Source of the DNA: Eledone cirrhosa
Taxonomy: Eukaryota
Reading direction: 5' to 3'
DNA: 64,000 bases
NCBI GenBank assembly: GCA_964016885.1
Contig: OZ024743.1
Location: 199,826,001 to 199,890,000, forward strand
The notes under the pieces were generated by a model. The model searched no databases. It was given only the letters and a program-made list of their open reading frames with translations, and had not been told where the DNA came from. A program made the translations under genes and the position numbers. Every line of letters begins with the position of its first letter. Position 1 is the first letter of the stretch. Shown here piece after piece: positions 7-50,454 of this stretch.

Positions 7-192
7 GTAGGAGGTGAGTTTTATTGTAGTACAATAAAGCAATGCAGATATCGGATAAGAAGCACTCTACAGTTTGTAGGACTGGAGTATACATAATATA
101 TAAGAACAAAAGATGGTTAAAGGAGTTCCATGTATTTTGAAATGCGCATAATAAAATACATGGAACTCCTTTAACCATCTTTTGTTCTTATA
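7..192 (-). mobile_element. PLE family A terminal fragment (tail plus short inverted arm)
   Basis: Matches the 3' end of the 36813-40213 element. Palindrome AAGAACAAAAGATGGTTAAAGGAGTTCCATGTATTTT / AAAATACATGGAACTCCTTTAACCATCTTTTGTTCTT surrounds a partial hammerhead GAAATGCGCATA. Flanked by (TA)n. Confidence 0.8.
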
Positions 193-293
193 TATATATA
201 TATATATATATCTTTCACCGTATTTTTGACTAAAGAAATTTTAGCCTGATAATGGGGTTTAGAACCCTCAGATAAATGGAAAAAGATGAGTAT

Positions 294-364
294 TGACGTA
301 CATGGGAGTCGAACCCACATCTTTGGTTATCCAGACCACTGTGCTACCATTACACCAACACATC
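294..364 (-). tRNA. Inverted copy of the tRNA-like cloverleaf
   Basis: Reverse complement of 421-491 with one loop difference (CTGGATA). Confidence 0.55.
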
Positions 365-420
365 ACCCAAATGTGTGATGTGCTACAATTACACCAACAC
401 ATCACATCACACATTTGGGT

Positions 421-491
421 GATGTGTTGGTGTAATGGTAGCACAGTGGTCTGGAAAACCAAAGATGTGGGTTCGACTCCCATGTACGTCA
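421..491 (+). tRNA. tRNA-like cloverleaf (anticodon GGA, short variable loop); pseudo-tRNA or SINE head
   Basis: A box TGGTGTAATGG, D stem GTGT/GCAC, anticodon arm TGGT-CTGGAAA-ACCA, T arm GTGGG-TTCGACT-CCCAT, G-U-rich acceptor stem, TTTTT about 9 nt downstream. Confidence 0.6.
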
Positions 492-631
492 ATACTCATC
501 TTTTTCCATTTATCTGAGGGTTCTAAACCCCATTATCAGGCTAAAATTTCTTTAGTCAAAAATACGGTGAAAGATATTCTATTTTCTAATTTCAAACCTG
601 CTCACTGTTTCAAAACATATATATATATATA

Positions 632-45270: not shown

Positions 45271-45470
45271 CAGGCAGGTCAAACTGAGGGTCCCTCGAGG
45301 GTCACATGGGTCACATATGTGTTGTTTGAGGGCCACACACGACAACTAATTGTGCACAACTAATTTTACGAAGATAAAACATGCTCGCGCTGTAAAAACC
45401 TCTGTGCGGGTCTCAGGTGTGCTTGTAAAATGCCGCACGTGTCCCGCGGGCCGCATGTTTGACATGCCTG
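45271..45470. mobile_element. hAT (Charlie-like) MITE
   Basis: TIR CAGGCAGGTCAAAC / GTTTGACATGCCTG. 8-bp TSD ACTTACAG/ACTTACAA. Confidence 0.8.
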
Positions 45471-45854
45471 ACTTACAAAATGTTCGAACTGATACTCAGA
45501 GTACCAGATAAATATCAAGTCTATCAACACAGTTATTGATATTAGAATCATTATTATATTTACCTTTCATCCTTACGGGATTGATAAAATAAAGTACCAG
45601 TAATGTACTGGGTAATTGCTGGCCTTGTGCCAAAAGTAGAAACTATTTATCACTACTTTTTTTCAGGTTGGTTCGCACGAATTATTGCCATCATTACATA
45701 AATAGTGCCGGATTTACAACAAATGAGGCCCTCTACTAGTTAAGTTATGAGGACCCTTACTCGTAAAAAAATGTGCGTGTATTTATATGCATAGATACGC
45801 ATACACACACTCACACACACACACATGCACGCACACACGCGTATATATATATAA

Positions 45855-46208
45855 GCAAAGAGATATTTAATTTGTTGGTTATTCAACAGATTCGAAGCAC
45901 ACTAGAGGTTTCTTCTGGAGTATAATATCAATGATATTAATAAATGGAAACTATCTTTATAAAACCATATTTATTTCATTATATATATTTCAAGGGTACC
46001 AACATTTTGGTACGCTCTCATCAGATAAAATACAAAACTGAACTTAAAACGATGTTCTTGATTTTTTTGGGATATGTCAATATTTATAAAACAACTTTTG
46101 TATTTTATCTGATGAGAGCCTACCAAAATTTTGGTACCCTTGAAATATATATAATAAAATAAATATGGTTTTATAAAGATAGTTTCCATTTATTAATATC
46201 ATTGATAT
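45855..46208. mobile_element. PLE family D inverted termini with tail (degenerate relative at about 31040-31200)
   Basis: 45925-46038 is the reverse complement of 46095-46208. Each arm has a hammerhead. Confidence 0.8.
46101..46161 (+). ncRNA. Type I hammerhead ribozyme (family D); inverted copy at 45972-46032
   Basis: TATTTTAT-CTGATGA-GAG..TACCAA/TTGGTA..CTT-GAAA-TATATA-TA^ATAAAATA. Confidence 0.8.
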
Positions 46209-49039
46209 ATATATATACATATATATAGATAAATGTGTATATATATATATATATATATATATATATATATATATATATTTATATATATACACAAATTTCT
46301 GTTGTGTATGTTTGTGTCTGTGTGAAAAAGAGAATAAGAGAGATTGAGATAGAGAGACAGAGACGGGAGAGAGGGGGGGGGGTAGTTGAAGAACTCACTT
46401 ATTTTGATTTATTTATTGTGTTATCCGACGAGTATCTTTTTATGTTATTAATTTGTCTCCAGAGAAATATAAATTTATTGTTAAGAAATAGACGTCGAAG
46501 TCAGCAGAATATTGGATTCCGATCGAATTTAATTATATAACCAACTAATTCTCCACTAATTCTTCAGTTCACGACCCTTGTAAAATTATAAGAAAATGAA
46601 TGATCGAACAAAGTGTGTGCACAATAGCAAGGCGGGGCGATATATATATAGTGTGTGTGTGAGTGTGTGCATATATATATATATGTATATATATATATAT
46701 ATATATGCACACAAACAAACACACACACACACATATACATATATATATATATATATGTATATATATATATATATATATATATATACATATGTCTATATAT
46801 CTGTATACATGCATAGAGACAAACACACAGACATACATATATACATACATACATACGTTCATATATACATACATGCGTACATACATATATGCATACATAC
46901 ATGCATATATAAATACATATGTGCACGTATTTATATACACATGCATTTATGATTATAATATATAATAATGATTATAATGCATATAAACTTGTAATTACAA
47001 AAGCTATAAAAATATTCCTATAACACACAATTAATCAAATGCTTTCATTTTTGTATTTTTATTATAAACTGTCTTTTATGGACGTATATATGCAAATACA
47101 CATATACATGCAGAAATACAGACATACACTCATATATACCTATATATATATATATATATATATATATATATATATATATATATATATATATATATATATA
47201 TATATATATATATATTTATATATATATATATATATATATATATATATGGGTGTGTAGGTGTGTGTGTGTGTATATACACCTACGTACATACATGTACAAA
47301 TACACGTATACTTATATATATATATATATATATATATATATACACACACACACACATACACACACACACACACATATATATATATATACATACATATGTA
47401 TGTATATACATACACATACGTAGATACATACATAAACACACGACGTATATATATATATATATATACGTGTGTGTGTACATATATATATATATATATATAT
47501 ATATATATATATATATATATATATATATGTATATATATATATATGTATATATATATATATATATATATATATATATATATATATATATATATATATATAT
47601 ACACATATATATATATATATACATATATATATATATATATATATATATATATATATATATATATATATATATATATATATATATATATACACATATATAA
47701 ATATATATATGTATGTATATGTATGTATATATATATACCTACTTACATACATAGATAAGCACACGTATACATTGTATTTATACATATATGTATTATTTTA
47801 TTTTGTTATATATCACAAACAACTCCAACTTTCATTTTAAATTAATATCTTCCAGTTGATATTTTCTGCTTAAAAGCCAACTTTCTTCTATTGTATTATA
47901 CGCCATAAATCATTCGTCAGCGGAAGTCGTCTGCTCCGACCGGAAAGGTCGTCTGTTACCACAAATGGTAGGGCGTGTTGTATATATTTCTTTTTTTTTT
48001 GCTTTTGCTTTGTTATTTATATTTTCTTCATTATTATCATTTCATTTATTTATTTTTGTTACCATTTCTACATTTTTCAAGAAGTTTATATTTTAGTTAC
48101 TGAATCTATATTTTGATCTATAAATTATTTGATTAAACTAAGCTGATCAATTTCTTTCAGCTTTCTAGTTAATTTTCTTCTTTTCCTCTACACTGCACAT
48201 GGTTCCGTTTTCGTTTATATATTATATTATATATTTTATTATATATTTTTATCTATTTATTCCTTGGTTTTGATGGAGATGGCGTTGTAGGAGTCATTTT
48301 TCTTGTTCTTGGAATGATCCGTGTGTAATTTTTAACTTAACTTATATTTTTTTCTTTACCATTATGTTTCTAACGTTTCGTTCTTCATCTTTTCCTCCCC
48401 CTCCTCCTACTCATTTTGCTCCCCCATTCACACCCCCATGCACATTCTTCTTCTTCTTCTTCTTCTTCTTCTTCTTCTTCTTCTTCTTCTTCTTCTTCTT
48501 CTTCTTCTTCTTCTTCTTCACCTTGGCCTTCAAATACTCTGCTGCGGCCATCTTGTTTTTCTTTCTTTCAATCAATCACTTAATACGTGCATTTTATTAC
48601 AACATAAATCATTATCATCATCATCATAAATCCCACCACCATCAACAACACCAACACCACCATCATCATCATCATCATCTTCATCACCACCATCATCATC
48701 ATCATCATCATCATCATCATCATCATCATCATCATCATCATCATCATCATCACCACCTTCCTCCTTCCCATCATCATCATCATCATCATCATCATCATCA
48801 TCATCATCATCATCATCAACATTACCGTCGTGTCCAGTGCCGTTTTCATTTATCTATTTCTTAATTTGTTTCCTAATAAAACAAACTAATTTCTGTGTGT
48901 TCAATATTCGAAGAACATTGCTTAAATCAATAGATTCTTTGAAAAATGATATTTAGAAGAACAACTGCAACAACATTCTACAACACAAAGGCCAGCTTAT
49001 TCCAACACGCAAACACACAGACACATGCATGCTTATATA

Positions 49040-50454
49040 CACGTATATATATATATATATATATGTATATATATATGTATGTATGTGTGTGTGTATATAT
49101 ATATATATATATTTATGCATGCATGTATGTATATATGCATATATATATATATACATGCATGTATCTATGTATATATGCATATATATATACATATATATAT
49201 ATACATATATATATACATGCATCCATGTGCATATATATATACACATGTATGTATATATGTATATATGCATATATATATACATATATATATATATATATAT
49301 ACATATATATATATACATGCATCCATGTATGTATATATGCATATATATATATATACATGCATGTATATATGTATATATGCATATATATATATATATATTG
49401 TTATATTTGGGGAGGGTCATATAACAATATCTGTTTCGACACACGATTTCATATAAAAAACCTCGCTAAAGTAATATATATATATATATGTATGTATATA
49501 TATATATATATATATATACATATATATATATATATATATGCATATATATATACATATATATATATGTATATATATATATATATATATATATATATGTATG
49601 TATATATATATATACACATACATATATATATATATATATATATATATATATATATATATATATATATATATATATATATATATATATATATATATATATA
49701 TATATATATATATATGTGTGTATATATATATAAATATATATATATGTGTATATATATATATATATATATATATATATATGTATATATATATATATGTGTG
49801 TATATATATATATATATATATATATATATATATATATATATATGTGTGTGTGTATATATATATATGTGTGTATATATATATATATATATATTTGTATATA
49901 TATATATATATATATATATATATATATATATATATATATATATATATATATATATATATATATATGTATATGTATGTGTATATATATATATACATACATA
50001 TATATATATATATATATATACATATATATATATATATATATATATATATATATATATATATATATATATATATATGTATATGCATGTATGTGTATATATA
50101 TATATATATATATATATAAATATATATATATACAAATATATATATATATATATACACACACATATATATATATATATATATATGTATATATATATATGTG
50201 TAAATATATGTATATATATATATATATATATATATATATACAAATATATATATATATATATACACACATATATATATATATATATATATATATATATATA
50301 TATATATATATATATATATATATATATATATATATATATGTGTGTATATATATATATATATACACATATACATATATATATATATATATATATATATATA
50401 TATATATATATATATATATATATATATATATATATATATATATATATATATATA
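49040..50454. repeat. About 1.4-kb compound (TA)n microsatellite (others at 5865-6050, 28035-28540, 40520-42000, 47140-47740)
   Basis: Visible directly. Confidence 0.95.
49394..49473 (+). mobile_element. Minimal PLE family B scar
   Basis: ATTGTTATATTTGGGGAGGGTCAT (inverted arm) joined to ATAACAATATC..ACACGATTTCA (tail). Confidence 0.7.

Follow-up and report, generated by a model that had tools for sequence, protein, structure and literature searches.

Penelope-like elements (PLEs) are described as leaving inverted truncated copies with a one-sided tail of 30–40 bp, and as targeting TA sequence (Craig 2021, PMC8557442; PMC3846280; PMC8969392). How the inverted repeats and the tail at a single end arise has been called an open question (PMC8557442). 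In the green anole's Poseidon element PAc, both strands are nicked and extended in vitro from two internal starts, and the later integration steps are left unvalidated (Frangieh 2024, PMC11167929). Twin priming and dual priming have been described for L1 (PMC2837659; bioRxiv 10.1101/2024.12.14.628481). The present analysis concerns three PLE families, A, B and C, in a window of 64,000 nucleotides from Eledone cirrhosa (contig OZ024743.1, positions 199,826,001 to 199,890,000 of the forward strand; coordinates below are those of the window) and in loci across the 3.0-Gb genome of this animal. Insertions of all three families are head-to-head pairs of arms whose outer ends lie at two fixed sites, a tail-less end (S) and a tailed end (T), and they probably arise by priming twice on a single RNA.

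Two fixed ends and their pairing

The original prediction had placed seven insertions in the window, each with a tail-less arm that stops at a family-specific point, and self-comparison and direct reading bore out the sites and end motifs of all seven. The tail-less ends lie near 193 and at 36806–36814 in family A, where S is smeared over ~8 nt of TA-like sequence, at 7146, 35669 and 49395 in family B, and at 631 and 44207 in family C. The tailed ends are found at 7 and 40213 (A), at 6596, 36757 and, decayed, near 49473 (B), and at 841 and 42463 (C). The tail on the opposite arm, expected to be 60–90 nt long, measures 81 nt in A, 59 nt in B and 79 nt in C. Either arm may be the long coding one, as had also been proposed: it is the tail-less arm in A (36806–39412) and the tailed arm in B (35717–36757), while the C insertion at 42463–44207 is non-coding. 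In every case both arms are oriented with their sense 3' side outward and face each other centrally with their truncated ends.

The same architecture occurs genome-wide, and the end positions collected across copies cluster at two fixed sites rather than at random. Among 317 sequences fetched around the end motifs, a sampling that does not blindly survey ends further upstream, sense 3' ends followed by (TA)4 coincide with one of the two sites in 153 of 156 cases for C, 86 of 89 for B and 112 of 124 for A. Of the 12 A ends away from both sites, 10 map to -750 to -900, a stretch in which an interruption breaks the reference copy. Facing pairs consist of one S and one T in 23 of 25 cases (B) and 30 of 31 (C) among the first 100 matches listed. 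Independent choice of site would give S+T in at most half (binomial p 1e-5 for B, 1.5e-8 for C). Two of the three exceptions among these matches (L177 and L141) are internal tandem units with outer end S, and the third (L142) is a true T+T pair.

Counts over all examined loci agree with this. In family C, S+T is found at 94 of 103 junctions, with no S+S and no T+T; the other nine, of which six have an eroded end and three reach the edge of a locus, were not counted as S+T. In family B, 51 of 52 pairs are S+T, L141 included. In family A the figure is 60 of 64, with one true S+S and three pairs with mirrored flanks. The A loci were chosen in part by T or S motifs, and the deliberate inclusion of three suspected S+S cases inflates the exceptions. 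The three mirrored pairs (L211, L232 and L233) are S+S pairs that represent later palindromic rearrangement of the insertion.

The 100% identity of young arms and the difficulty of assembling palindromes in TA runs would fit an assembly or amplification fold-back artefact, the outcome that would have undone the original prediction. Family C was checked in Illumina reads from a separate study carrying the same species label. Loose TA ends occur at S in 2,925 and 2,600 reads and at T in 7,398 and 8,050, and strand-switch joints are present. In addition, the arms are asymmetric, the flanks are excluded from them, and old pairs have diverged to 91–92% identity (window positions 88–204 and 631–762). 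An artefact is largely refuted for C, and we regard it as exceedingly improbable.

Template and priming of the two arms

Each insertion probably results from twin priming on one sense RNA, with one start at S, the other at T and the products joined by microhomology. The element protein, probably a dimer, would nick both strands of a (TA)n target. One target 3' end would prime reverse transcription at internal T and the other at internal S, 59–81 nt upstream. Both sites are likely to be set by the protein–RNA complex, with 2–4 nt of pairing giving the register. The T cDNA would either halt near S or displace the S cDNA and recopy that stretch, and each cDNA would end by truncation or by run-off at the RNA 5' end. 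The two cDNA 3' ends may then anneal by microhomology or be end-joined, each templating the second strand of the other.

The use of a single RNA is suggested by clustered base changes. A scan of the examined loci found dense sense-strand A>G clusters in two B insertions (L141 and L151) and no T>C clusters; a third edited B insertion (L295) was added by pattern search, in which the T>C control pattern had 0 matches. Given the established specificity of ADAR enzymes, we infer that the clusters are ADAR edits fixed by reverse transcription. The changes are common to both arms at 31 of 32 positions in L141, 28 of 31 in L151 and 15 of 17 in L295. The edited 31-mer of L141 occurs twice in the genome, once in each of its own arms, and the edited-pattern search returned four matches, comprising both arms of two insertions. 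The edit strings differ among the three insertions. In all three, A>G changes thin out or end ~90–100 nt upstream of S and spare the tail, which suggests either the footprint of a protecting protein or selection to keep a binding site free of edits. A circular RNA copied by rolling circle was also considered; L141, whose second pseudo-long terminal repeat (pLTR) is unedited, does not support it.

Arms of an insertion could instead derive from two RNAs, one per protein subunit, and resemble each other through a common source locus or later conversion. The anole element is predicted to form a dimer (PMC11167929), and mirrored flanks reveal that copying between arms can follow insertion. Such dual priming is nonetheless quite improbable, as edits private to the insertion appear in both arms in three of three cases with the S/T asymmetry kept, and the divergence of old pairs indicates that homogenisation is not general. 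Arm length class is also coupled: 85 C pairs not chosen by length comprise 76 short-short, 7 long-long and 2 mixed pairs (Fisher p 1.3e-8). In 17 young long C pairs (14,724 nt), 39 variants are present in both arms and 7 are arm-specific.

Many arms also stop at the same inner position. In family C, 108 of 206 inner ends lie at -66..-54, and in family A 36 of 92 lie at -177..-172. Both boundaries carry a TCA motif, presumably matching the initiator consensus, 25 nt behind a TATA-like box. To judge from these motifs, the inner boundary in C and A is likely to reflect run-off at the transcript start. Hammerhead cleavage was rejected as a 5' boundary, since it fits only 2 of 92 A inner ends (-51 and -50) and none clearly in B. 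For the C boundary an HDV-like (hepatitis delta virus) ribozyme was weighed by visual inspection and dismissed. Raw reads pile up on AATT at 6205 and 6264; these are probably enzyme cuts, and raw depth was not used for the start site.

Three side observations concern inner ends. Some A arms, several of them in repeated copies, start at the predicted hammerhead cleavage site (L057, L190 and L228). One arm (L166:378-509) carries ~17 consecutive A at its inner end, at the presumed RNA 5' end, and these look like untemplated or slipped addition by the reverse transcriptase. In an odd C insertion (L248:5496-6571) the left arm has its end at about -64 and not at S, and the T arm skips from -61 to -727; the -62 boundary could thus sometimes be a cut and not a start.

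The proposal that an insertion joins two target-primed cDNAs of opposite orientation by their truncated ends agrees with the arm lengths, the lack of overlap in some pairs and the microhomology at junctions. Either arm may be the longer. Among 22 long C pairs the T arm is the farther-reaching one in 15 and the S arm in 7, short C pairs are divided 27:27 (T:S) with 13 equal, and the T:S ratio is 16:18 in B and 10:29 in A. Long-arm lengths in C pairs are uncorrelated (rho 0.12). The T arm lies wholly within the tail and has nothing in common with the S arm in 6 of 46 cases in A, 2 of 37 in B and 4 of 103 junctions in C; two such tail-only T arms start 1 and 3 nt past S. Among young long C junctions, 8 of 19 have microhomology of at least 3 nt (4.8% expected, p 1.4e-6), and 6 of 19 pairs contain junction inserts, some copied from nearby sequence.

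These arm lengths bear on a fold-back origin, in which one cDNA or self-primed RNA copies itself and the hairpin, before it integrates, is trimmed by the endonuclease at S and T. Its parts have been proposed, self-priming in Arkhipova 2013 (PMC3846280) and endonuclease resolution in Craig 2021 (PMC8557442), and it accounts for identical arms, common edits and junction microhomology; L141 fits it. It requires the long arm to be the first strand, however, and the polarity of cutting would then tie the tail to arm length; no such tie exists. Non-overlapping arms (L256, L260, L197 and L206) cannot be mutual copies. In L151 the long S arm and the short T arm each hold sequence missing from the other, so that neither is a full copy of its partner. 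The A>G edits are on the sense strand, which argues against an antisense template. Fold-back is accordingly judged unlikely.

Twin priming on one RNA, as preferred here, places both starts within the element, whereas the original prediction had one cDNA start at the RNA 3' end. That part does not hold in B and C, where T runs on into the element. In the C tandems L063, L064 and L177, T continues into the 5' untranslated region (UTR), with the first Met ~90 nt later. In the B tandem L141 it continues into the reading frame, S and T both lying in the first codons. In vitro, both starts of reverse transcription are likewise internal, non-homologous and bounding the tail (PMC11167929), in agreement with an internal T in B and C.

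The second part of that proposal, an internal TA-rich site that pairs with the target, is weakly supported. A TA match is present, but it is just 3–4 nt at each of S and T in B and C, and longer alternating TA runs lie close by at -121 (C) and -157 (B). All insertions within the window are in (TA)n, as claimed, but elsewhere a minority adjoin CA or CT runs: 7 of 66 A tail ends adjoin CA runs and 1 of 66 a CT run, and several S ends adjoin CT runs. Since the match is short, longer runs are near and CA or CT neighbours occur, the target repeat likely sets the register rather than the site. RNA folding found no structure common to S and T (z -1.4, -2.4 and +0.25; the B copy was the edited one).

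In the form originally proposed, T is the RNA 3' end, or a (UA)n read-through junction, and S is chosen by pairing with (TA)n. This would account for the TA microhomology at both ends and for the sliding of S within a TA-like stretch in A. Transcripts of truncated copies would have (UA)n after T, which is possible for mini-insertions, and no continuing copy is seen for A. It is at odds with the tandems of B and C, with the T arm of L141, which was copied from an internal unit, with the brevity of the match beside longer TA runs, with sites that are unchanged beside CA or CT runs, and with the internal, non-homologous starts of PMC11167929. We rate it as improbable, marginally more so than fold-back.

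Several observations weigh against twin priming on one RNA. There are two true exceptions to one-of-each pairing, one S+S (L231, A) and one T+T (L142, B), and arms without a visible partner are found at L104, L106, L107, L264, L271 and window 26463–26778. Edited insertions number only three, and L141 taken alone also fits fold-back, its T arm lying wholly within the long arm. The S and T of L141 come from different repeat units ~4 kb apart, so one bound cluster of sites is not required. Arm-to-arm copying after insertion does occur (the A pairs L211, L232 and L233, with mirrored flanks), and because of these cases the edits common to both arms could in principle be later conversion. Finally, the transcript start is a putative one, read from motifs, B inner ends have no sharp 5' boundary, and no A copy with T continuing into the element was found among the loci examined.

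A more tentative extension of twin priming on one RNA, which we consider possible, is a dedicated two-primer route in PLEs. One complex with two non-equivalent positions for reverse transcription would copy the same RNA from S and T as the normal way to a double-stranded insert.

The families and other features of the window

The three families are PLEs. Family C has a tandem unit of 3,531 bp with an intact 773-aa frame (L091) that, read by eye, contains YRDD and a GIY-YIG-like end. The protein has no match in Pfam or PDB; its Atlas neighbours score 0.96–0.99, with GIY-YIG or RVT_1 in some clusters. Family B encodes a reverse transcriptase (RT) followed C-terminally by a GIY-YIG in a single frame with a CX4CxxC linker (Pfam GIY-YIG E 1.2e-4, at the cut-off; RVT_1 E 6e-4, below the cut-off). 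The layout of A matches that of C in an alignment made by eye. Both have DKT and CxCX5C motifs, C has RWR instead of RWK, and CCHH, again judged by eye, is absent from both.

Our own motif scan found a hammerhead core motif with paired stem I in A and a hammerhead-like motif in the pLTR of B. An Rfam search of both gave no ribozyme, only microsatellite noise. Compared with Neptune/Nematis-type elements, which have a CX2-5CxxC linker ahead of GIY-YIG and a hammerhead within the pLTR, B shows the linker and a candidate for the hammerhead. In C, CTGANGA is missing on both strands and Rfam found no hammerhead. Because it has no canonical hammerhead core, C is, by its motifs, only Hydra-like.

Exact patterns matched 24,282 arms of B, 35,946 of C and 12,326 of A genome-wide, the pattern for A being biased towards S arms so that an S:T ratio is not derivable from it. 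The reversed patterns, used as controls, gave 0. Inverted pairs occur in all three families and tandem units in C (units of 3,531 bp) and B (L141); no tandem copy of A was seen among the loci examined. Most C insertions are minis. One young C insertion (L091-L092) has more than 3 tandem units (~12.5 kb) ending in S, and its partner is a T arm of 283 nt.

The arms in the window are listed in Table 1. The B tail at 36699–36757 consists of codons near the start of the element's frame. The long A arm at 36806–39412 is split by a short interspersed element (SINE) near 37650–37850. In the C arm at 43736–44207 a TATA-like box lies at 44118 and the likely start site at 44143.

Table 1. Arms of family A, B and C insertions in the window
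Family	Positions	Strand	Description
A	7..138	-	Short insertion, tailed arm, T end at 7
A	135..193	+	Short insertion, tail-less arm; 4-nt overlap with tailed arm
C	631..694	-	S arm of mini-insertion; extends inward to 64 nt upstream of S, the likely transcript start
C	700..841	+	Mini-insertion, T arm; inner end as in S arm; 79-nt tail 763–841
B	6596..6938	-	T arm
B	6937..7146	+	S arm; 2-nt overlap
B	26463..26778	-	T arm without visible partner; absent from the original prediction
B	35669..35716	-	S arm, 48 nt
B	35717..36757	+	Long T arm: end of GIY-YIG frame (to 36197), then pLTR; hammerhead-like motif 36495–36539; S 36698; tail 36699–36757
A	36806..39412	-	Long S arm: broken RT-thumb and endonuclease frames (39412–38206)
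A	39399..40213	+	T arm with a TATA-like box (39934), the likely start (39959), a hammerhead-like motif (40023–40087) and the tail (40133–40213)
C	42463..43739	-	Long T arm comprising the non-coding 3' portion and the pLTR; tail 42463–42541
C	43736..44207	+	S arm, 472 nt, 100% identical to T arm
B	49395..49420	-	Old, very short S arm
B	49420..49473	+	Old T arm, begins ~10 nt before S; tail decayed

Further repeats were observed in the window. A fourth palindrome in (TA)n at 211–616 has an extension of ~40 nt on its right arm only and related copies in other loci, and is probably another PLE-like family. A fifth family (45851–46206 and 31015–31205) has ~70 nt extra on the left arm and none on the right, with a hammerhead-like core that resembles that of A. 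More palindromes or inverted repeats with no obvious tail lie at 2973–3184, 16088–16694 and 34513–35208. Different families are chained within one (TA)n tract at many loci, each newcomer in the flank of the last (e.g. window 186–640). Three related non-LTR retrotransposon copies, ~70% alike, occupy the minus strand at 10205–15618 and 56479–63958, with endonuclease and RT frames recognised by eye.

Comparison with described systems

The architecture and the two start sites have already been published; the rule of one of each from one RNA appears to be new and is well supported, though indirectly. No paper stating it was found in searches on PLE mechanism, twin priming and edited retrocopies, and earlier mention is possible (Arkhipova 2006; Evgen'ev and Arkhipova 2005; the supplement figures of PMC11167929). 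The rule and the common edits give sharp single-molecule predictions for the published in vitro system. If true, PLEs would be retrotransposons with programmed twin priming by default, a rare accident in L1. This would explain the tail, the inverted pLTRs and the tens of thousands of mini-palindromes across PLE clades that resemble miniature inverted-repeat transposable elements (MITEs). The mini-palindromes would be paired run-off cDNAs ending at the transcript start, and fixed RNA edits would serve as natural single-molecule barcodes. Many short palindromes in TA-rich animal genomes that look like MITEs or assembly errors are suggested to be PLE products.

Canonical PLEs (PMC8557442; PMC3846280) share with these families a 5'-truncated inverted copy that produces inverted pLTRs, as well as partial tandems, a tail that is often confined to one end, (TA)n targets and palindromic junctions. 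In those papers the tail is optional, 30–40 bp long and ascribed to endonuclease cleavage or self-priming. In A, B and C, by contrast, it is 59–81 nt long and all but obligatory at one and only one end, with the inverted form dominant. Families A and C resemble the Hydra clade (PMC8557442) in DKT, CxCX5C, a C-terminal endonuclease without evident CCHH and (TA)n targets. C departs from that clade by its RWR in place of RWK, by a unit of 3.5 kb and by its lack of a canonical hammerhead core.

PAc (PMC11167929) is like A, B and C in its two internal RT starts bounding the tail, little target homology and a predicted dimer. The PAc start sites lie 111–118 nt into the open reading frame, whereas here B has them within its first codons and C within its 5' UTR. 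That paper reports no strand difference in start site and proposes ordinary second-strand synthesis; in the text covered, the two starts are not tied to the paired arms of a single insertion.

L1 twin priming (PMC2837659) is similar in that a second nick primes a second cDNA in the same RNA, giving inverted halves with some microhomology. It is described as a minority variant, in which the first primer is on the poly(A) tail, the internal site is variable and the halves do not overlap. In A, B and C both sites are fixed, T is internal (B and C) and the arms mostly overlap. Edits private to an insertion and present in both arms, coupled arm lengths and non-overlapping pairs nevertheless point indirectly to a twin-priming-like action in these PLEs.

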